Part shown: one piece after another, positions 28,849 through 41,128 of the stretch
How the letters are laid out: the number at the start of each line of letters is the position of its first letter
How positions within the stretch are numbered: position 1 is the first letter of the stretch
Origin: Sedimentisphaerales bacterium
GTDB taxonomy: Bacteria > Planctomycetota > Phycisphaerae > Sedimentisphaerales > SM23-30
Reading direction: 5' to 3' (one strand)
Assembly: GCA_963666285.1 (NCBI GenBank)
Contig: OY762711.1
DNA: 64,000 nucleotides
Position numbers and translations under genes: made by a program
Notes under the pieces: generated by a model
What the model saw: the letters and a program-made list of their open reading frames with translations, nothing else
The model's database searches: none
Told to the model about the DNA's origin: nothing

Positions 28849-31800
28849 TTATTCCGGAATGGTGGCGAGGTCTGTGATTTCTGATGCCGATAAGGCAGAG
28901 TTATAAATTTTGACTTCGTCAATGAGTCCGTCAAAAGGAAATGTGTATGAAGGGTGAATTCCAATTGTCATTACACCCTGTTCGCCGTTATAAATTGTTC
29001 CAGCATGTTGAACCTGCCCAGACAGTTGTCCGTTAATGTAAATGTTCAAATACTGACCGTCATAGGTTTCAGCGATATGGGTCCACTGGCCGACTGTTAC
29101 CGACTCTGTAGAATATGCCGAAACGCTTTGGTCAGGATCATTGTCAAACCTAAGCTGTGCCCGCCATTTATTGGTTACATAATCTGCAGTTAATGTCCAG
29201 GTGCCAGGCTGGTCACCTATTTGGCGATTGATTATAAACATTTTTTCGGAAAAAGATTCAGGTTTGACCCAGGCAGTTATAGTTATTTGCTTCTGAATAT
29301 TTAATGAACTGTTAGGCTCCTCAACTATAAGATAATTGCCATTATCCAATTCAAAATCCAGGCAACTACCGAAATAACTGTCATTTGTGTTCCATTGAGG
29401 AAGATCAGCTCCAGGTGCAGCAGTTCCCATAATGCAATTATTACCAAATCCGGTGGAGTCGGGTGCAACAGTACCAGAGGATTCATTCATTGGCCAGCAA
29501 CCAACAAGCGGCATGCCGGCAAGGGCCTGAATTTTACCGTCGGATAAAGCATAATTGCAGATTCTGACATCATCGATAGAGCCATTGAAGAAGCCTGTAG
29601 CACTATAATCTTCCGAATCAATTTTTGGATAATAGGCACCAATCAGAACATTTCCTATCAATTCGGTATTGATAACAGCATCCAGTTCGGAACTGTTGGT
29701 GGATACCTCAACGCCATCGACATAAAATATTACCTGGTTGATATTGTCAGCATCCTCCGGCAGTACAACTGCAACATGATGCCAGAGACCGTCTTCGAGG
29801 TCAGGACCACCGATTAGACGAGCCCCCCAGATGGCCAGGGCAAGCTGACCTGTAGTTTCGTTGATCATAACAACCCACTTTTTGCAAAGGTCATTTTCGT
29901 CTCCTTTTCCCCATGATGTAATGATATAAGTATTCTGGTCAGAATTTGTAAGATCTTCATCCAGCTTAATCCAGGCAGCAACAGAGCGAGAATAACTGCC
30001 GGGGATGCCCTGATAGCCTTCGATTTCGACATAGTCATCAATGCCGTCGAAATTGAGACAATTATTGATTATGCCAGGGACCCAATTGGGCTCGCCGTGG
30101 ATAGTGCCATTGATCTGGTATTCAGAAGAATCGTATGCTATTGAGCCAGAGTCTTCATCGAAAGGCCAGTAAAGCTCATCAATATCTGAAGGCGGTATAT
30201 AGCCGCCCAGCCACTGATCGACGAAAATCAACATATCTGAGATGTCTATACTGCCAGAGCCATCAAAATCAGCAAATGTTGAATAAGATGAATCATTTTT
30301 ACCTGAAAGCCAGGCAGGAGCAAACATAGAGAAGTCAGTCAGGTTAACAATAGAGTCACTGTTCATATCGGGTACGCCAGACTGCCAGGCGAGTATTGGA
30401 TAGCTATTAGCAGACATTTGCCAGATGTCATCAGTGCCGTTGGCGGTTTCGCCGACGAAGTCCCATCCTGCATCGAGGAAGGTGTTGATGTCGAATGTGC
30501 CGTCAATGATAGCAGGTAAGCTAAAGAGTTCATGAGAAATAATTCTATCATTATAATGGCTAAAACCATCATTTGAAATAAAATAAGAATTTATCAACGT
30601 ACCATAATAAAAGTTAGCAGTACAAGCAGATCTACGACCTACTTTCGAAATAGGGACAGGGCAGGAAGTGTAGCAATTTATAATAGTGGCCTTAGGTTCA
30701 GGATCCAAATTGAAATTATACCCCAGGTAGCCACAAATGCCGCCACCGGTGACATTACCAGTTACATAACATTGGCTGATGGTGCAGATGTTATTTGCAT
30801 TATCGGCAGAACCGCAAATACCGCCAGTATATACAGAATCTGATGAAGAAATAGAAGCATTTTCCAACCCAATTTTCATAACGATCGCATCCGGCCCTAA
30901 CCTGCCAAATAAGCCGCAATGAGAAATACCATTAATAGTTAAATTATATATAATATGTTCGTTGCCATCAAAAATACCGTTGTATACAGGGCCATCAAAA
31001 ATATTTGAAAGATTTGTATCATCCGTATCAGGTGCTATTGGCGCTCCGGAGTATTGAATGCCAGTGAGGTCTATATTGCACATTAGTTTGGTATGGATAC
31101 CTTCGGCCCAATAATCAACATCGTGATAATTGGGATCAGAGAAGGTAAGAAAGTTAGCCATATTCTGAATCAGGAATGGGTCGGATTCTGTGCCAGTTCC
31201 TTCGAGTGGTACTATCACCCCCAAAGAAACGATAAAGTTAACTTGAGTGCCTGAAGCAACAGCAGAATCTGCCTCCGGTATCTGTGAGATGATAAAGTTT
31301 TTTGTTATAATCGTATCGCAGGCATAAGATATGTTACCGACAGTCAGTCCTGCGTTTGTGATAGCTATCTGGGCTTCAGCTTGAGTAAGTCCGGACAAAT
31401 CAGGAACTGTTAGCCAAGGACCGAGTGAAACGACCAAATCAACAGATGTGTCGGCAGCTACTTTGGAAAGAGCAGTTGGAGATTGGTTTACAACGTGGCC
31501 AACAGCTATAGTATCACTATTTATATAAGAAATGCCACCGACAGTCAAATCAGTATCAATAATCATTTGACTGGCATTTTCAATGGTTAAGTCAACAACG
31601 TCAGGAACAATCGACCATGGGCCAAGTGAAATAACCAGGTTAACAGCGGATAATGGCGGAGCTAACTTTTCAGCAGCAGGAAAAGAGCCGCTAATAAAGC
31701 CTTCCGGTATGACATCATCAGATTGATAAGATATAACACCTACACTAAAACCAGAACCGGTAATCAACGCCTCTGCCTGTATTAGAGATAAACCCGTGAT

Positions 31801-33132
31801 ATCAGGTACTGTCACCCAGTTAGATTTGTCCTGCCATGATAAAGCTGGATAACCGTTCATGAACCATATTTGCTCGGTTCCATTGGCGGTTTCGCCGAAG
31901 AAGTCCCATCCTGCAGAGAGGAATGTGTTTGTATCTTGCATATCGGATGTGGTAAGACCCTGAACGTTGGTAATTGTTCCACTATTTAGATTGTATCCAA
32001 CAGATAATCCTGAAGTTTGTGTATCCCAGAAAGAGTTTGAAATATTGGCATAGATTCCATATTGATATCCACAGAGTCCGCCGAGATAAACATCGCCGGA
32101 AACGGAGCCAGTGGCATAGCAGTTGCTTATAGTGCCAAAATAATTACGCCCGCATAGTCCGCCGAGATAAACATCGCCGGAAACGGAGCCGGTGGCATAG
32201 CAGTTAGAGATGGAGCCAGAATTATTTTTTCCACATAGACTGCCGAGATAATCATCGCCGGAAATCGAGCCGGTGGCATAGCTGTTAGAGATGGAGCCAG
32301 AATTATTATATCCGCATAGTCCGCCGAGATAATCACCGCCGGAAATCGAGCCGGTGGCAAAGCTGTTAGAGATGGAGCCAGAATTATTATACCCGCATAA
32401 TCCGCCGAGATAATAAAATCCATCTACAAAAGCTTCAGAAAAACAGTTGTTGATGTATGAGTTGTTGGCATAACCGCATACACCGCCAAAATGTTGCGTA
32501 TAAGAATAATCCTTCTGAGGATATATAAAGCCGGTTGAGCTGCAATTGTCTATAGAAATACCATTGGCATAACCGCAAATACCACCTATATATTTTTCAC
32601 CGTAAACTGTTGCGTTGACATTGCAGTTAGTAATATTGCCTTGAGAATATCCACATAGTCCGGCACAATAACTGGAAAAGCTTGTTCCTCCGGTTATTTG
32701 GAAATTATCGATGTATAGATTTGATATTGAAGCATTACTATCGATATACCCAAATAGTGCCAGATAGTCATGGCCGGAATTTGGTACATTGATTGCAAGA
32801 TTAGATATGGTTTTATCATTGCCGTCGAAATGGCCTGAATAGGGAGTGCCGTCAAAATCTTCATATAGGGCACAGTATAAATCAGGGGCAATTGGAGCCC
32901 TGTAGCATTGTCGAGAAGAAAGGTCGAGGTCGACCGTAAGTTTGGTATAAACGCCTGCGGCCCAATGATCGATGGTGGTATTGGGATCGGCGAAAGCATT
33001 GAAATCGTCAATATCTTCGATGAGGTATGGGTTGGATGCAGTACCGGAGCCGGGCAATATGCCTCCGGCGGCGAAGATAAGGTTAGTAAACAAACAAATA
33101 ATTACCAGAGACAGCTTCAATTTAGCACTCAT
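28849..33132 (-). CDS. Secreted GLUG-repeat / 3x PASTA / dockerin-like / 2x LamG surface protein
   Basis: Signal peptide; GSGT..NPYLI; tandem GGLCGYN..GSISN.YATG repeats; VPD..GL PASTA units; D.N.D..V..DF..F...WL; two LamG domains. Confidence 0.88.
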   Translation of the reverse strand: MSAKLKLSLVIICLFTNLIFAAGGILPGSGTASNPYLIEDIDDFNAFADPNTTIDHWAAGVYTKLTVDLDLSSRQCYRAPIAPDLYCALYEDFDGTPYSGHFDGNDKTISNLAINVPNSGHDYLALFGYIDSNASISNLYIDNFQITGGTSFSSYCAGLCGYSQGNITNCNVNATVYGEKYIGGICGYANGISIDNCSSTGFIYPQKDYSYTQHFGGVCGYANNSYINNCFSEAFVDGFYYLGGLCGYNNSGSISNSFATGSISGGDYLGGLCGYNNSGSISNSYATGSISGDDYLGSLCGKNNSGSISNCYATGSVSGDVYLGGLCGRNYFGTISNCYATGSVSGDVYLGGLCGYQYGIYANISNSFWDTQTSGLSVGYNLNSGTITNVQGLTTSDMQDTNTFLSAGWDFFGETANGTEQIWFMNGYPALSWQDKSNWVTVPDITGLSLIQAEALITGSGFSVGVISYQSDDVIPEGFISGSFPAAEKLAPPLSAVNLVISLGPWSIVPDVVDLTIENASQMIIDTDLTVGGISYINSDTIAVGHVVNQSPTALSKVAADTSVDLVVSLGPWLTVPDLSGLTQAEAQIAITNAGLTVGNISYACDTIITKNFIISQIPEADSAVASGTQVNFIVSLGVIVPLEGTGTESDPFLIQNMANFLTFSDPNYHDVDYWAEGIHTKLMCNIDLTGIQYSGAPIAPDTDDTNLSNIFDGPVYNGIFDGNEHIIYNLTINGISHCGLFGRLGPDAIVMKIGLENASISSSDSVYTGGICGSADNANNICTISQCYVTGNVTGGGICGYLGYNFNLDPEPKATIINCYTSCPVPISKVGRRSACTANFYYGTLINSYFISNDGFSHYNDRIISHELFSLPAIIDGTFDINTFLDAGWDFVGETANGTDDIWQMSANSYPILAWQSGVPDMNSDSIVNLTDFSMFAPAWLSGKNDSSYSTFADFDGSGSIDISDMLIFVDQWLGGYIPPSDIDELYWPFDEDSGSIAYDSSEYQINGTIHGEPNWVPGIINNCLNFDGIDDYVEIEGYQGIPGSYSRSVAAWIKLDEDLTNSDQNTYIITSWGKGDENDLCKKWVVMINETTGQLALAIWGARLIGGPDLEDGLWHHVAVVLPEDADNINQVIFYVDGVEVSTNSSELDAVINTELIGNVLIGAYYPKIDSEDYSATGFFNGSIDDVRICNYALSDGKIQALAGMPLVGCWPMNESSGTVAPDSTGFGNNCIMGTAAPGADLPQWNTNDSYFGSCLDFELDNGNYLIVEEPNSSLNIQKQITITAWVKPESFSEKMFIINRQIGDQPGTWTLTADYVTNKWRAQLRFDNDPDQSVSAYSTESVTVGQWTHIAETYDGQYLNIYINGQLSGQVQHAGTIYNGEQGVMTIGIHPSYTFPFDGLIDEVKIYNSALSASEITDLATIPE
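32075..32410 (-). repeat. Intragenic 78-bp (26-aa) GLUG tandem repeats
   Basis: Recurrent ccgccgagataa...gagccggtggca units. Confidence 0.85.
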
Positions 33133-34123: not shown

Positions 34124-37100
34124 ATGGTCTTTATGTCCAGAATTATGAGATATGTCGCAATATTAGCTATTGCAACTAGTTTATTAAGTAATTATGCAAT
34201 GGGTCAAAATAGCGGCAGTTTTGAGGACAGTACATCAGTAATCAATGTCTGGCTCAACGGCAAGGAGATTCAATATGAAGCTCAAATGAGTGTTGGATTT
34301 GTCGGTGACGAAGCGATATTTATGCTGAACAAAGATCAGAGTTATGTTTCTCAGTCTGGTCAGCCCAAGCTGCCATTTCAAAAGATTCGCCTGTTACTGC
34401 CTGCAAATGCAGTTATGAGCAGCATTGATATGCATCTGGAAGCCGAATATAGCGAAGTTGAAGGTGAGTGGGATGTGTCCCCGATGCCTCCGGCTTCAAT
34501 TGTAGACAGTAATGGAGAAGAACTGATATGGCCAGAGTCAGCAACAATAATTGATGGTTATGATGCAGATATATATGGAGCTGACAGTTTCTGGCCTGAG
34601 TCAAAGGCTGTAGAAACGAGTTCCGGAAGTTTGAGAAGCTATAAATTGCTGGAACTGGCAATACCATTATTCAGGTATAATCCATCAAGCGGTAATCTGC
34701 AAAAACTGGTTGAGGGAGATTTGACAGTATTGGCCCCGGAGAAAAAAAGTACGACTACAAAGAGCCAGGTTGTCGGTAATGCAGAAATTAACGATCGAGT
34801 TAGCAGTCTTGTATCGAATTATGATCAGTTTAGTGAAGAATATTCAGAGAGTGTTGTTAGCAAGTCTCCAAATCTGAATGACAAAGGGTATGTGATTATT
34901 ACAACCAATACGATTGTGAATGCATCGAGTAAACTGGCAGATTTTGTGGCTCATAAATCAGCAAATTATACAGTCAGTGTAATTACAGAAAGTCAGTATG
35001 GTTCTGGAAGCGGCGATACCGCTTCAAATAACATCAGGGCATGGCTGCAGTCAAACTATGCAAATGAGAGTTACGGTTCGGGCGGAATATTGTATGTCTT
35101 ACTGATAGGTGACCCGCGGACAGACAGCAGTAGTGTTCCTATGAAGTTGTGTCGAGATGACCTCCCGACAGATTATTATTATGCCGAATTGACTGGCGAC
35201 TGGGATAGTAATAATGACGGAGTTTACGGTACAGATGATGACAGTCCGGAAAAATATTTTGAAGTATATACCGGTCGAATTCCATATTACGGCACTATAA
35301 GTGATACCGATAATATCCTGCAGAAGTTTATTGACTATGAGAATTCCACAGATACAGATTGGCGTCGAAATGCATTGCTTCCAATGGTTCCGCTTGATGA
35401 CAGCACGCAGGCTTATCAAATGGGCGAGCAGATTAAGTATAATTGCCTGGAGTCCAGGTTTATAACATCAACTCGAATATATGAAGAGAGCTATGGTTTG
35501 ACTCCTCCGGCAGAATATTTACTTGACGACAGGTTTCCAGCGACTGAATGGAGTGAAAATGCATACGGTATGGTTATCTGGCAGACCCACGGCTGGAGTC
35601 AGGGAGGATCCGGAGTTATTAGCAGCAGTAATACCGGCAGTCTAAACGATGATTATCCAAGTGCGGTATACCAGGGTTCCTGTATGACAGGTAATCCGGA
35701 TGCGACAGACAACCTGGGTTATATGCTATTGAAAAACGGAGCAATTGGTACAATAGCTGCCAGTAGGAATGGTTTATACTGGGTAGGCCAAACGAATTTT
35801 ACAAATACCAACAGTGTGGGCGGTATAGGATATCAATATGCCAAGCGTCTGGCAGAGAAAAAGACACTCGGTCAGGCTATTTTTGACAGTAAGGAATCAC
35901 TTGGTTTCTGGCTGCAGAATTACTATGTATATAATCTATATGGTGACCCGTCTATGGTTATAATGCCAGAAGAACCGGATTTTGGAATAGTACCAACACA
36001 TAGCCTAACGTTTAATACTGTATATGGCGGGATAAGTGATGACTCATTGAGTATTTCACTAGTGAATAATTCATCATCCGGTATGAGTTGGACAGCGAGC
36101 AGGGGTAATGCTACATGGTATGATCTTTCCAGTTTAAGCGGCAGCATAAGTGGAAACAGGACAGCTAACCTAGTTGTAAAATTGAATAGTAATGTTGAGT
36201 CTATGCCGGTTGGTACACATACTGATGTTATCACAGTTAAGAATAATTCAACCGGTCAGACAGAAAGCCGCACAGTTACATTGACAGTGTCGCCAGTGAG
36301 AAAACTGGTACACTGGACGTTTGATGAGACAAGCGGCGAAACGGCTGAAGATGTGTCGGGTAATGGATATACCGGTACACTTGTGAATACAGATTTTAGT
36401 ACGGCGTCAATTGCTGGTAAGTATTCCACAGCAATGCTGTTTGACGGGACAGATGATTATGTTGAGGTTTCAGGTTTCAATGAAGATATGTGCGGTATGA
36501 CTATATCTGTGTGGCTGTATCCTGATGACTGGAATGGTAATCGTCGAATAATCCAGAAGGGCGGCGACGGCAGCGAGTTTCGGTTGTTGCGGGAGCGAGG
36601 ATATTTTGTATTTGAGATAGGCAGTGCCAGGCTGGAATTATCGTCATTGCCTGCAATAGGCAGCTGGACACATGTTGCAGCAGTATATGACGGAAATGAA
36701 ATGAGAGTCTATTATAATAAGGAATTAAAGGGCCGTTTCGTCCGCAGTGGAAAAGTACCAATCAGCAGCAGTACGATGTACATAGGGGCAAAGAATGATA
36801 GTTCAGCAGCTTCTGACTTATTCAAGGGCGGCATGGACGAATTGCAGATATTTAATTATGCCAAGGATGAGTCAGGAATAGAAGCGTTGTATAACGGCAT
36901 TAATCAGCCGGAAGCATTATGTCCGTATCATGGCGCAGGTAATGTGACTCTTATAACTGACTTGGAATGGCGGATGGGAATATCTGCGGTTAACAATGAT
37001 GTCTATTTCGGCAGTAACTATGATTCTGTTTTGAATGCAACAACTAGCTCAGATGAATATAAAGGCAGGCAGACCGGTGAGAGCTATTCGCCAGGAACCC

Positions 37101-39379
37101 TTGTGATGAATTCTGATTATTACTGGAGAATAGACCAGATTGACACAAGCGGCGCAGTTACTAGCGGTCCGGTCTGGAAATTTACAACAGGAAATGGAAC
37201 CGGTGGTATTACCTGGGATGTATGGTATAACATTTCCGGAAATTATGTAACCAATTTGACGGGCAATAGTCGTTATCCAGACAGTCCGGATGATACAGAA
37301 ATTATGCCAACTTTTGAAGGTCCGAGAGATTTTGCAGAGAACTATGGTTCAAAGATGTATGGATTCCTGATACCGCCTGAGACAGGTAATTATACTTTCT
37401 GGATAGCCAGTGATGACTATTCAGAGTTGTGGCTGAGTAGTGATACAGATCCTTCAAATGTTTCCAGGATAGCGTATGTTTCAGGATACAGTGGCTACCA
37501 GGAATGGGAGAAGTATACTTCGCAGAAATCAGCAGCAGTGTATTTGGAAGCCGGAGTGCCATATTATGTAATGGTATTACATAAGGAAGGAGGAGGAGGA
37601 GACTGTGCCTCTGTAGCCTTTGAAAGCCCAAGTTTTGGCAGGAAGCTGATTACAGGCGAGTATATTATGCCATACGCGGAAGATTATAACTGGGGGCCAG
37701 TATTTGAGTCAGGTCGAATAAAAGGTGAGACAGCCTATGAAGGTGATGCCGGATATGCCGGGAGTCTGTCTGAATATGTGTGGAGTGCATCGAGCAGTGA
37801 CTTGACGTTCAGCAAGATTGCCGGCCCTGAGTGGCTGACAGTTGAATCAGATGGAAGTTACCATGGTACAGCATGGGACAAGCATACCGGATTTAATCTA
37901 TTTGAAGTAAAGGCAACCGATTCTAATGGTTTGTCAAGTACTGCGATTTTAGAGATTAAAGTTGTAGATATGTTTACCGGTGAGAATGGCATGCAGGACT
38001 TTTCTCCGTTCAGTGAAGGGTGGATGAGTCAGACACAAGGATATCATGGCTCTGATCTGGATGGAAATAATTCTGTAGATATTGGAGATATGGCAGAATT
38101 TGCCAATAACTGGCTGATAGAAATATCATATGGTATAGAGCGATTCTACTGGCCGTTTGATTATGATGCAGACGAAGTGTTAAATGATTATGAAGGTATA
38201 TTTAATGGAGGAGCTTCTATAACTTATGAAGGTATTACTAAATTGCCAAATGGTGATGGAGCTTTATTATTAGATGGAGTAGATGATGATCTGGCAGTAA
38301 AAGATTTTGTCGGAGTATGTGGTACTTCCAGTCGCACTTGTATGGCTTGGATTAAGACATCTTCAACTGTTGGAGGGACTATTGCTTCTTGGGGGGAAAA
38401 TAATAATGGCGAAAAATGGATGTTTAGGGTTAATGTAGATGGAAGTATTGGTGTAGGTGTATGGGGTGGGTATACACACTCTCATGTGATAGTTAATGAT
38501 GGTGAATGGCACCATGTTGCTGCAGTACTATTTGATGACGGCACACCTGATGTAAATGAGTTGACTCTATATGTTGATGGTAGAAAAGCTGAAAGTTATT
38601 CAAGTGGTAGTAGGGCAATAGATACCGCAAAAGCTGATTTTATTAGGATAGGTTCTTATGTTAATGAGAGCGCCATTGGTTTCTTTGACGGCTATATTGA
38701 TGAATTTAGGCTTTTCAATGAAGCATTAACTTCAGATGACATTAATTCATATGCAGGCTTTGACTTGGATTTGTATTTTCCATTAAATGAGAGTTCAGGC
38801 TCTATTGCTAATGATTATTCATTGTATGGCAGAAATGGAGGATTGGTTAATGGACCAGTTTGGCAGAGTGGCAAAGCATTATTATTTGACGGTGTAGATG
38901 ATTATGTTCTTGTAGATGATTATGTTGGAATTGTTGGTCAGGCAAGCCGTACAAGCATGGCATGGATAAAAACAGATTCAACTCAGTCAGGTGTAGTACT
39001 AAGTTGGGGGCAGAATGACGCTGGTAGAAAATGGATGTTTAGAGTTAATTCAGACGGTAGTTTTGGTGTAGGTGTATGGGATGGATATGTGCATTCAAAT
39101 GCTGTTGTTAATGACGGAAACTGGCATCATATAGCCGCAGTTTTGCAAAATTATGGAGAATCTGATCTAAGTGATATTGTTCTGTATCTTGATGGAAAAG
39201 AAGTATTATCTTATTATTCTAGTGAAGTTACAATTAATACTGCGATTACCCCGGGTGTGCTTATTGGTACGTATGACCACACTTTGAGTTTGGGCTGTTT
39301 TTCGGGGCAATTAACCGATGTTAGGATATATAATAGAGCTCTATCACAAGACGAGGTTGAAGCGGTTGTTACAAATTAG
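34124..39379 (+). CDS. Gingipain-like C25 cysteine peptidase with propeptide, LamG x3, PA14 and dockerin-like domains
   Basis: GQPKLP propeptide, YVLLIGD, TDYYYA, GRIP, catalytic THG...GSC, YNLYGDP; PA14 YTFWIASDD...HKEGGGGD. Confidence 0.88.
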   Translation: MVFMSRIMRYVAILAIATSLLSNYAMGQNSGSFEDSTSVINVWLNGKEIQYEAQMSVGFVGDEAIFMLNKDQSYVSQSGQPKLPFQKIRLLLPANAVMSSIDMHLEAEYSEVEGEWDVSPMPPASIVDSNGEELIWPESATIIDGYDADIYGADSFWPESKAVETSSGSLRSYKLLELAIPLFRYNPSSGNLQKLVEGDLTVLAPEKKSTTTKSQVVGNAEINDRVSSLVSNYDQFSEEYSESVVSKSPNLNDKGYVIITTNTIVNASSKLADFVAHKSANYTVSVITESQYGSGSGDTASNNIRAWLQSNYANESYGSGGILYVLLIGDPRTDSSSVPMKLCRDDLPTDYYYAELTGDWDSNNDGVYGTDDDSPEKYFEVYTGRIPYYGTISDTDNILQKFIDYENSTDTDWRRNALLPMVPLDDSTQAYQMGEQIKYNCLESRFITSTRIYEESYGLTPPAEYLLDDRFPATEWSENAYGMVIWQTHGWSQGGSGVISSSNTGSLNDDYPSAVYQGSCMTGNPDATDNLGYMLLKNGAIGTIAASRNGLYWVGQTNFTNTNSVGGIGYQYAKRLAEKKTLGQAIFDSKESLGFWLQNYYVYNLYGDPSMVIMPEEPDFGIVPTHSLTFNTVYGGISDDSLSISLVNNSSSGMSWTASRGNATWYDLSSLSGSISGNRTANLVVKLNSNVESMPVGTHTDVITVKNNSTGQTESRTVTLTVSPVRKLVHWTFDETSGETAEDVSGNGYTGTLVNTDFSTASIAGKYSTAMLFDGTDDYVEVSGFNEDMCGMTISVWLYPDDWNGNRRIIQKGGDGSEFRLLRERGYFVFEIGSARLELSSLPAIGSWTHVAAVYDGNEMRVYYNKELKGRFVRSGKVPISSSTMYIGAKNDSSAASDLFKGGMDELQIFNYAKDESGIEALYNGINQPEALCPYHGAGNVTLITDLEWRMGISAVNNDVYFGSNYDSVLNATTSSDEYKGRQTGESYSPGTLVMNSDYYWRIDQIDTSGAVTSGPVWKFTTGNGTGGITWDVWYNISGNYVTNLTGNSRYPDSPDDTEIMPTFEGPRDFAENYGSKMYGFLIPPETGNYTFWIASDDYSELWLSSDTDPSNVSRIAYVSGYSGYQEWEKYTSQKSAAVYLEAGVPYYVMVLHKEGGGGDCASVAFESPSFGRKLITGEYIMPYAEDYNWGPVFESGRIKGETAYEGDAGYAGSLSEYVWSASSSDLTFSKIAGPEWLTVESDGSYHGTAWDKHTGFNLFEVKATDSNGLSSTAILEIKVVDMFTGENGMQDFSPFSEGWMSQTQGYHGSDLDGNNSVDIGDMAEFANNWLIEISYGIERFYWPFDYDADEVLNDYEGIFNGGASITYEGITKLPNGDGALLLDGVDDDLAVKDFVGVCGTSSRTCMAWIKTSSTVGGTIASWGENNNGEKWMFRVNVDGSIGVGVWGGYTHSHVIVNDGEWHHVAAVLFDDGTPDVNELTLYVDGRKAESYSSGSRAIDTAKADFIRIGSYVNESAIGFFDGYIDEFRLFNEALTSDDINSYAGFDLDLYFPLNESSGSIANDYSLYGRNGGLVNGPVWQSGKALLFDGVDDYVLVDDYVGIVGQASRTSMAWIKTDSTQSGVVLSWGQNDAGRKWMFRVNSDGSFGVGVWDGYVHSNAVVNDGNWHHIAAVLQNYGESDLSDIVLYLDGKEVLSYYSSEVTINTAITPGVLIGTYDHTLSLGCFSGQLTDVRIYNRALSQDEVEAVVTN

Positions 39380-39401: not shown

Positions 39402-39434
39402 AAAAAAAGCTCTGCTGATATGGCAGAGCTTTTT
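39402..39434. terminator. Bidirectional intrinsic terminator
   Basis: aaaaaaagctctgct-gata-tggcagagcttttt between convergent genes. Confidence 0.85.
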
Positions 39435-39464: not shown

Positions 39465-40310
39465 TTATTTTAGTAATATATCGCCGAAACTGGTGGCGGC
39501 TACGATATTACCAGAACCGTTACCGATTTTCCCTTTCATGTTTTCTTTATTGATAGAACCAGATATGGTAACGGGTTTGTCGCATGTGACTTTGCCGAAA
39601 GAAGTTGACAGTTTTACATTTCCGGCATAATTATCCAGATTGCATATCTTGATATTGCCGTAAGATGTATTCAAATTGCAGTTGAAGTCTTCCGGGAGGT
39701 CGGATCCTGAGAAGTTGATACCGCCAAAAGATGTATTTACTTTTGCTGTCTTGCAGTGATGGTTTTCAACATTGACAGTACCGTATGAGGTGTTCAGGTC
39801 AGGGTTACCTTTACAGTTTTTGACTGATATGTCACCGAAACTTGTATCAGCTTTAACAGGTTTATTGATATTTTCAATAGAAACTTTACCAAAAGAAGTG
39901 TTAAGGTCGAGAGTAGTGCCAGTAGCGAGAGTTACAATGAAGCCGGCTCCGATAGTTTCATTATGTTCTTTTGAGATATTGCATTTTGGTTTAGCGATGA
40001 TTTTGTCACCGCTGATTTCTATGATAATCTCGGTATTATCTGCCAGTTCCCGGGCTCTTTCCTTAGTTTTTGCCCTTGCGATGATTTTGCCGGAGATTTC
40101 GCACTTATCAGTATCGCTACCGGTGATTTTAATATCTCCGAACTGGGTGTCGCAGGCAAATGTTTTGCCGGAGGTGTTTTCAGCGGTCATTTCAAACGGT
40201 TTTTTTACCTCTTCTTTACATGAATCGCTGCATCCGTTGATATAAATGCAGCCGCCCATTGATATAGAGACGAGAATAAGCAACAGGGAAATCTTAATAA
40301 GTTTGAACAT
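39465..40310 (-). CDS. DUF4097-like beta-strand-repeat lipoprotein
   Basis: AGGAG RBS; lipobox MGG-C21; repeated T(S/Q)(F/Y)G.(I/V) motifs. Confidence 0.85.
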   Translation of the reverse strand: MFKLIKISLLLILVSISMGGCIYINGCSDSCKEEVKKPFEMTAENTSGKTFACDTQFGDIKITGSDTDKCEISGKIIARAKTKERARELADNTEIIIEISGDKIIAKPKCNISKEHNETIGAGFIVTLATGTTLDLNTSFGKVSIENINKPVKADTSFGDISVKNCKGNPDLNTSYGTVNVENHHCKTAKVNTSFGGINFSGSDLPEDFNCNLNTSYGNIKICNLDNYAGNVKLSTSFGKVTCDKPVTISGSINKENMKGKIGNGSGNIVAATSFGDILLK

Positions 40311-40367
40311 GGTTTGACTCCTATTCCAAAAAAGTTTTATAAACTATATATTCCACACAACAATACA

Positions 40368-40393
40368 GTCGAACAGATAGAAAAAAAATATCA
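40368..40393 (-). promoter_or_regulatory. ECF-sigma-type promoter motif upstream of the DUF4097-like gene
   Basis: Minus strand TGATAT-N16-CGAC. Confidence 0.55.
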
Positions 40394-40497
40394 TAATATT
40401 TTGGTAATTTATCTGGTACGATTTATGCTTCGCATCTTATACAAGGCGTACTTTTGACTGTTCAGCGTTAACCGCAAAGGTCAGAACAGGGCCAACT

Positions 40498-40580
40498 AAG
40501 TGAAAAACGAATAATGAAAAGTGAAAAATTAACATTAAGGTGTTCAACTATCGTCTCACGCTTTGTTTAAAACATAAGCG
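40498..40580 (+). repeat. Heptamer-led REP-like element
   Basis: aagtgaa/aaacgaa/taatgaa/aagtgaa, then attaaggtgttc-aac-tatc-gtc-tca...tttgtttaaaac. Confidence 0.6.
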
Positions 40581-40652
40581 TGGCAGGAAGGCCCTTTTAG
40601 GCGTTTATTGCAACTTGAAAAGTGCGAAAGTAAACTATCTGATATATTGAAT

Positions 40653-40736
40653 CTATCCAATATAAATGCAACCGCCCATAGCAAGAAGGGTAGTTACTGC
40701 AGCAATCGCGAGGAAAAGCAATTTTGATAATTTCAT
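40653..40736 (-). CDS. 27-aa micro-lipoprotein MKLSKLLFLAIAAVTTLLAMGG-CIYIG
   Basis: AGGAG RBS 6 nt before ATG; basic n-region, hydrophobic h-region, lipobox Cys23, TAG stop; below the ORF-track cutoff. Confidence 0.7.
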   Translation of the reverse strand: MKLSKLLFLAIAAVTTLLAMGGCIYIG

Positions 40737-40780
40737 AATAAGCTCCTGATAAAAAAAGGTTAAATGATTCTTAAGGTTCA

Positions 40781-40823
40781 TAATACCTCTCAAACTGACC
40801 GATGGCCAGTTTGAGAGGTATTA
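40781..40823. other. Perfect 17-bp stem-loop between the two small ORFs
   Basis: taatacctctcaaactg-accgatggc-cagtttgagaggtatta. Confidence 0.8.
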
Positions 40824-40955
40824 GGTATTAGTTATTTGGTATTAGGTAAGGTTTGCCGCAAAGCGGCAGGCTAATTAAATCATTAATGTAACAATTTGCA
40901 TTGAATTATGTTACCACAATAAAAAATGTAAAATCGGTCACTTTGAGTAATTAAT

Positions 40956-41039
40956 TTAACTGATATGAATACATCCACTTGAAGCGAGCGATAAAACAAC
41001 AAACAGTAATGCCAGGAAAAGTTTTTTAATTGTATTCAT
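40956..41039 (-). CDS. 27-aa micro-lipoprotein MNTIKKLFLALLFVVLSLASSG-CIHIS
   Basis: GGAG RBS 7 nt before ATG; lipoprotein signal with Cys23, TAA stop. Confidence 0.7.
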   Translation of the reverse strand: MNTIKKLFLALLFVVLSLASSGCIHIS

Positions 41040-41102
41040 GGTAAATCTCCATAAGTAAATAACATACATAATTACACGTCAAGGGTAGATTATAATATAT
41101 TT

Positions 41103-41128
41103 GACGTGTTTGATAGGAAAAAGTTACA
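41103..41128 (-). promoter_or_regulatory. ECF-sigma-type promoter
   Basis: Minus strand TGTAAC-N16-CGTC, 63 nt upstream of the ATG at 41039. Confidence 0.7.

Follow-up and report, generated by a model that had tools for sequence, protein, structure and literature searches.

The two very short open reading frames (sORFs) described here belong to a family of extremely short predicted lipoprotein genes. By sequence comparison, this family is real, selected and lineage-restricted, and its members mostly head ECF-type operons. The window, which is the whole 64,000-nucleotide stretch of DNA that was analysed, carries the two sORFs on its minus strand, and we consider it very probable that they are translated and functional. 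In the minus-strand order, a promoter is followed by sORF1, sORF2, the gene of a 281-aa Toastrack lipoprotein and a terminator. The features of this region are:

41102..41128, minus strand: ECF-sigma-type promoter, TGTAAC-N16-CGTCA, assigned from its conserved pattern and intergenic enrichment
41046..41051, minus strand: SD-like site of sORF1
40956..41039, minus strand: sORF1, micro-lipoprotein 1, with a 22-aa type II signal peptide and the predicted mature peptide CIHIS
40789..40947, no strand given: MITE of 159 bp with 15-bp terminal inverted repeats, between sORF1 and sORF2 and outside the system; 43 BLAST matches of at least 80 bp in the genome
40743..40747, minus strand: SD site (AGGAG) of sORF2
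40653..40736, minus strand: sORF2, micro-lipoprotein 2, with a 22-aa type II signal peptide and the predicted mature peptide CIYIG
40416..40637, no strand given: second multi-copy intergenic repeat of about 220 bp, between sORF2 and the Toastrack gene and outside the system; 117 BLAST matches of at least 80 bp and a depth spike
39465..40310, minus strand: Toastrack (DUF4097) lipoprotein of 281 aa with the mature N-terminus CIYING, assigned from Pfam, AF2 and Foldseek
39404..39434, minus strand: intrinsic, bidirectional terminator, which ends the operon

The sequence-only reading of this DNA had claimed two 84-nt minus-strand ORFs, each with its own ribosome-binding site and a cysteine at position 23, and both were found with these coordinates and with SD-like sites. 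Each sORF starts with ATG and has 27 codons, and the stop codons (TAA and TAG) stand five residues past the cysteine. In a rule-based scan, both display the features of a Sec/SPII substrate, namely a basic n-region, a hydrophobic h-region and a lipobox ending in G/A/S-Cys. Lgt, LspA and Lnt are encoded in the genome, each above its curated cut-off, and BamA is present as well. The same reading had pointed to a match between positions 40660-40679 in sORF2 and 40240-40259 in the Toastrack gene, which is real and identical at 19 of 20 nucleotides.

We asked how often such ORFs arise. Scanned strictly, the 6.35-Mb genome contains ten short lipobox ORFs, with an SD site in sORF1 and sORF2 only. Under looser rules, contig C1 yielded six short lipobox ORFs with ATG and SD, against one or two per shuffle in five shuffles, and two C[IV]x[IV] ORFs against none in all five. 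These shuffle counts indicate that a lone short lipobox ORF may be a chance product, whereas an adjacent motif-bearing pair is not. The sORF peptides of the window had no Pfam match and no NCBIfam match over the cut-off. Read depth over the contigs of two DNA runs showed spikes at repeats only, and a hole over sORF2 carries no weight. No tailoring enzymes of a RiPP lipopeptide cluster adjoin the sORFs, the neighbours being a sulfatase, a C25 peptidase and the Toastrack gene. Near the operon we notice two large secreted multi-domain proteins (28849-33132, minus strand; 34124-39379, plus strand). The latter contains C25 peptidase, LamG and PA14 domains, and its gene shares the terminator at 39404-39434 with the operon.

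The spacers of the window operon are long because genomic repeats have inserted into them. The gaps from sORF1 to sORF2 and from sORF2 to the Toastrack gene measure 219 and 342 nt, or approximately 60 and 120 nt when the repeats are subtracted, close to the distance of 12-91 nt by which most relatives space the sORF and its following gene. The ends of the MITE are common to three elements of about 1.8 kb in the genome, and the ~220-bp repeat at 40416-40637 has no clear terminal repeats. The product of the parent element of the MITE (L329:407-1921) resembles a transposase, has 504 aa and does not match any Pfam family over the cut-off. An attenuator or RNA switch was considered for the 15-bp pairing of 40789-40803 with 40933-40947 together with a 20-bp hairpin. 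These strong hairpins are the ends of the multi-copy MITE, and the attenuator was therefore rejected; an Rfam search gave 11 matches, none at the gathering score. As a separate observation, the MITE flank at 40781-40823 extends the 20-bp hairpin, so that it covers a GAGAGG resembling an SD site, together with an ATG at 40781 that is in frame with sORF2. A start at this ATG would lengthen sORF2 by 15 residues. This flank is missing at other MITE copies.

The same spacing bears on the idea of a cis-acting leader peptide, in which the act of translating or exporting the sORF product would adjust how strongly, or where, the downstream lipoprotein is expressed. The position of the sORF at the head of the operon and the short distance to the next gene in most relatives agree with it. 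However, the window gaps have been widened by repeats, the sORF stands alone in three genomes, and the sole alternative pairing is the terminal repeat of the MITE. To our knowledge, five residues past the cysteine are also too few for any known arrest peptide. We regard the cis-acting leader as very unlikely.

Some family members were found at Toastrack loci, and profile searches with the sORF peptides, followed by retrieval of short-frame matches, added others. Together they make at least 18 intact copies in 16 of the 201 genomes of the order, spread over six genera and three families. This count is a lower bound, because 154 weaker profile matches lie outside those listed. Named records that carry sORFs are deposited as Phycisphaerae, Phycisphaerales, Anaerohalosphaeraceae or Pirellulales; we take their order to be Sedimentisphaerales. 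The mature parts have 5-8 residues of the form C-[IV]-x-[IF]. The precursors span 23-28 aa, so that the fixed length of 27 aa, which had been proposed as a kept trait, does not hold in the relatives.

Four kinds of setting were found for the sORFs. In the other three genomes of the genus (G001-G003), one or two sORFs lie immediately 5' of the Toastrack gene, and in G017 one sORF lies two genes ahead of it; tandem copies occur in the window genome (G000) and in G001. In genus g44, four sORFs precede a lipoprotein of 128-136 aa, although in G166 the contig stops within this locus. Four more, in g52 and g81, precede a helical-repeat lipoprotein. Three genomes of g34 carry three stand-alone sORFs ending in CIVFSC, two of which are identical. 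Altogether, an sORF stands ahead of Toastrack at 5 of the 77 Toastrack loci of the order (the window, G001-G003 and G017), for most of which 1.5-2 kb upstream was inspected, and less for some. The partnership specific to DUF4097 that the sequence-only reading had assumed is thus not borne out, as elsewhere the sORFs accompany two unrelated lipoprotein families or stand alone. Frameshifted copies occur at two of the six g44 loci (G066 and G096), beside an intact promoter and partner. As these two relatives hold decayed copies, the sORF gene is dispensable and can be lost.

Other searches added no members. A DNA pattern applied to the genome collection, which misses forms such as CIHIS and CIYIG, gave five true sORFs among the 80 of 98 stretches listed, none new to the family, and none of 13 metagenome matches to a DNA pattern was real. 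A related-locus search with the Toastrack query had no match. In profile searches of 301 genomes of the class, 201 of the phylum and 151, 101 and 151 of three other groups, no pentapeptide gene appeared among the retrieved loci, from which two genomes flagged as unpublished were left out for the other groups; longer motif-bearing lipoproteins were returned. Since a profile of 24-25 positions is weak, the range outside the order is best given as not found in those searched. We also notice a second type of micro-lipoprotein, with mature CKKGG, in G057 (L168:1501, plus strand) and G167 (L180:1560, minus strand). Its mature part is identical in both genomes, the signal peptides have diverged, and no lipoprotein gene lies downstream. 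In another phylum, tandem small lipoproteins of about 40 residues start with CGSARTP (L452:1501 and 1704, L461:1501).

Comparison of the copies argues that the sORFs are genes. The positions G-1, C+1, [IV]+2 and I+4 are invariant in all 15 tabulated sORFs, and the signal peptide drifts yet stays hydrophobic. Over four non-overlapping sORF pairs, from genomes that are kin and with two pairs from one genus, pS is 0.32 and pN is 0.12 (Fisher p 2.8e-4). The pairwise pN/pS of 0.23-0.65 represents modest selection. In ungapped comparison of three sORF pairs, the coding part is 86-93% conserved and the 3' flank 30-42%. A stop codon follows 5-8 residues past the cysteine in 18 of 18 intact copies. A conserved frame and stop, with pN below pS, is the pattern of protein-coding sequence, and selection over decay, as proposed before from the window pair, is upheld by the conserved family and by these substitution rates.

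The sORFs could instead be non-functional relics of duplications that copied only the 5' part of the downstream gene. The 19/20-nt match of sORF2 to the Toastrack gene, the patchy distribution and the decayed copies in G066 and G096 are in line with such an origin. In an ungapped, Cys-anchored comparison, however, the own downstream gene was the nearest sequence for one of 14 sORFs (G156) and otherwise ranked 7th to 26th of 26. The other 13 sORFs are not closest to their own downstream gene and are therefore not fresh truncations; they lie closer to other sORFs than to their partner. The low pN, the contrast between coding part and flank, and stops that keep their place across three partner families also speak against relics, and true decay, as seen in G066 and G096, breaks the frame. 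We judge the relic explanation highly unlikely. On the other hand, one sORF of G001 ends in CIYINTCS, which resembles the N-terminus of the Toastrack protein of the window. Together with the 19/20-nt match and G156, this suggests that duplication or conversion from the partner gene may occasionally have taken place.

The pattern of conservation also bears on which part of the product would act. Enterococcal pheromones are released signal peptides, and the signal peptide forms most of the sORF. The invariant positions, however, are the lipobox and the mature residues, whereas the signal region drifts, and a released signal peptide as the active product is extremely improbable.

A promoter pattern precedes many of these genes. 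TG[AT]AA[CGT]-N16-CGTC[AT] was found approximately 70-150 nt 5' of the sORF in 10 of the 16 genomes (in G192 by eye), and an ECF-type pattern was not found upstream of the sORFs of G001-G003 or g34. The sORFs of G001-G003 follow a histidine kinase gene, either immediately or at a short distance, and an OmpR-type regulator is encoded downstream. The AAC and CGT elements are hallmarks of ECF promoters, according to PMC8103513. In the window genome, TGTAAC-N16-CGTC[AT] is intergenic at 10 of 12 sites, compared with 3 of 22 sites that have another spacing, in a genome with 24% non-coding DNA. These sites have AAC at -35, CGT at -10, a conserved spacing and a place upstream of genes, as sites of an ECF regulon have. 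The genes behind them include those of an efflux-type ABC system, lipoproteins, a sigma factor and a very large protein that appears BlaR1/M56-like from its sequence. An envelope-stress context, which the sequence-only reading had put forward, is likely in view of the ECF-type promoter. The window genome has 69 matches over the cut-off to the sigma-70 family. The candidate ECF regulon comprises about 10-12 operons (for example at G000:C1 305730, 1236936, 1354182, 4532823, 5758347 and 6114494), and its sigma factor carries a long extension.

The downstream gene at 39465-40310 encodes a protein that matches PF13349 (E 2.3e-10; 40.7 bits against a cut-off of 22.9). Its AF2 model has a pLDDT of 89.5, with residues 18-28 below 50, and shows a beta-helix fold whose best Foldseek match is 4qrk (E 1.8e-8). 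A lipobox is present in 104 of the 150 top relatives of this Toastrack protein. The post-Cys motif occurs in 31 of these 104, compared with 9 of the 162 lipobox proteins of the window genome, a contrast that is inflated by related sequences. In its strict form, the motif is found in 2 of 141 lipoproteins of the window genome, and in its loose form in 9 of 162. The only other lipoprotein with the strict motif (439 aa) lies in an operon behind GTAAC-N16-CGTCTA. At this locus (L330:516-2404), we observe that the 439-aa protein contains repeats and starts with CVIVHS, accompanied by a 148-aa lipoprotein that resembles the g44 partner by eye. Neither has a Pfam match over the cut-off, and an ECF-type promoter lies upstream.

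Wherever the partner is visible (12 genomes), it starts with the same Ile/Val/Leu-rich post-Cys stretch, whatever its fold. The motif-bearing partner is the next gene at 11 of 12 loci and one gene further in G017. The element common to the sORF loci is thus, at the level of sequence, the predicted post-Cys motif and not the beta-repeat domain. In helical-repeat lipoproteins, G-C-x-V is invariant in 12 of 12, followed by a variable linker and then the domain. In both AF2 monomer models (Toastrack and helical-repeat), the motif is unstructured and outside the fold. It is also present on the 128-136-aa lipoprotein family of g44, and it heads small lipoproteins with His/Pro/Arg tails in other planctomycetes, as well as some lipoproteins of two other groups. 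Found across these lengths, the motif thus forms a continuum from motif alone, through motif with tail, to motif with domain. Of 151 genomes of the order, 22 contain the helical-repeat family (L337:1465-1893 and relatives), whose AF2 model is all-alpha. Scans of two members gave neither a Pfam nor an NCBIfam match, and an ESM Atlas search with two partner proteins returned hypothetical matches below 0.9 only.

Such a motif might be a sorting or export signal, in which case the micro-lipoproteins would probe, titrate or decoy a trafficking route or its sensor kinase. Its position matches that of the Bacteroidetes export signal (PMC5080379), it is common to unrelated domains, LolA was not found in the window genome with PF03548, and the sORFs of G001-G003 sit behind the histidine kinase gene. 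However, 2 of 141 or 9 of 162 lipoproteins are few for a general route, and the kinase locus of the window genome is about 530 kb away and has no such sORF. A role in sorting is unlikely.

We favor a portable docking strand, which we hold to have about an even chance of being correct: the motif would act by beta-strand docking, with the sORF products as its trans-acting, cargo-free form, in an envelope-stress operon. On this mechanism, an ECF sigma factor would start transcription near 41095, at the promoter recognized from conservation, and each sORF would be translated from its own SD site, as selection implies. The Sec, Lgt, LspA and Lnt pathway of lipoprotein maturation is established, and with its enzymes present, the precursors would give rise to CIHIS and CIYIG in acylated form. 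Through its lipid anchor, a short strand rich in Ile/Val and prone to beta structure may be held at the periplasmic surface of the membrane. We speculate that this strand pairs by beta-sheet addition with its own kind, clustering lipoproteins, or alternatively with an envelope complex, in the manner of LptM and LptD. As a spacer, filler or competitor at the docking site, the strand would be provided in trans by the micro-lipoproteins. The stand-alone g34 copies and the tolerated repeat insertions would fit an action in trans. A more specific form of docking is possible but doubtful, in which lipidated C-I-x-I is an unrecognised self-associating module that tiles unrelated stress lipoproteins into a beta-sheet scaffold at the membrane surface. 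Dedicated ribosomal lipopentapeptides, which would need no more than the housekeeping lipoprotein pathway, would then set its spacing or stoichiometry.

No specific protein partner would be needed if the products acted in bulk, as a peptidolipid of ribosomal origin that patches the stressed membrane or makes it stiffer. An acylated pentapeptide would be mostly lipid by mass, the promoter is of ECF type, G000 and G001 have a raised dosage through their tandem copies, the CKKGG type exists in two genomes, and the outer membrane of H. pylori owes stability to a small lipoprotein (PMC11768039). This explanation leaves the motif on the next gene at 11 of 12 loci unaccounted for, and we consider it quite unlikely.

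The sORF families are kept in relatives and mostly lie behind a stress-type promoter, suggesting a putative overlooked class of minimal lipoproteins. If the scaffold form of docking is right, the CKKGG type may point to further lipid-like gene products that have stayed hidden because they fall below the limits of gene calling. The length of such micro-lipoprotein genes is less than most gene callers and standard proteomics can handle. The sORFs reveal a portable post-Cys motif common to unrelated lipoproteins, and they link a defined ECF regulon to an exported Toastrack protein. Their peptides offer a minimal reagent for the binding target of the motif, the shortest substrate for Lgt, LspA and Lnt, and a probe of lipoprotein sorting in a lineage in which LolA is not detectable.

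The literature searched, with subscription journals outside its coverage, contained no description of this sORF family. Among known tiny lipoproteins, the entericidins EcnA and EcnB form a tandem pair. Like HP0135 of H. pylori, which has 28 mature residues (PMC11768039), they are Sec/SPII lipoproteins tied to envelope stability. In contrast, the mature part of the sORF products is several times shorter, rich in Ile/Val and not an amphipathic helix, and the sORFs had no Pfam or NCBIfam match over the cut-off to EcnA/B or other curated small-lipoprotein families. The Toastrack domain has been linked to envelope stress and argued to be mostly intracellular in 10.1101/2020.09.24.301986. Toastrack modules of the PSP/Lia type (DUF4097/DUF2807/DUF2154), as described there, share the fold, with a two-component system or a sigma factor nearby in relatives. 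They differ in that the protein is here an exported lipoprotein with micro-lipoprotein genes ahead, and the accessible part of that source mentions no upstream sORFs. The Bacteroidetes LES, K-(D/E)2 or Q-A-(D/E)2 (PMC5080379), is likewise short, portable and close to the lipidated cysteine. It is acidic, however, whereas the sORF motif is hydrophobic and is also a gene by itself; HP0135 and the LES are analogies only.

The closest in working to the mode proposed here is LptM (YifL), a small outer-membrane lipoprotein whose function lies in a short conserved stretch right past the lipidated cysteine, and which is still active when truncated to nine mature residues (10.1101/2025.01.03.631273). 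The window peptides did not match NF047847 (LptM), and one relative scored 15.1 against a cut-off of 27.7, through the signal peptide only. The sORF peptides differ from LptM in that they do not contain CGxKGPLY, their natural mature length is 5-8 residues, and their motif is common to the neighboring large lipoproteins. If translated and acylated, they would be natural lipoproteins with five mature residues, below both the engineered nine-residue LptM and the 28-residue HP0135.
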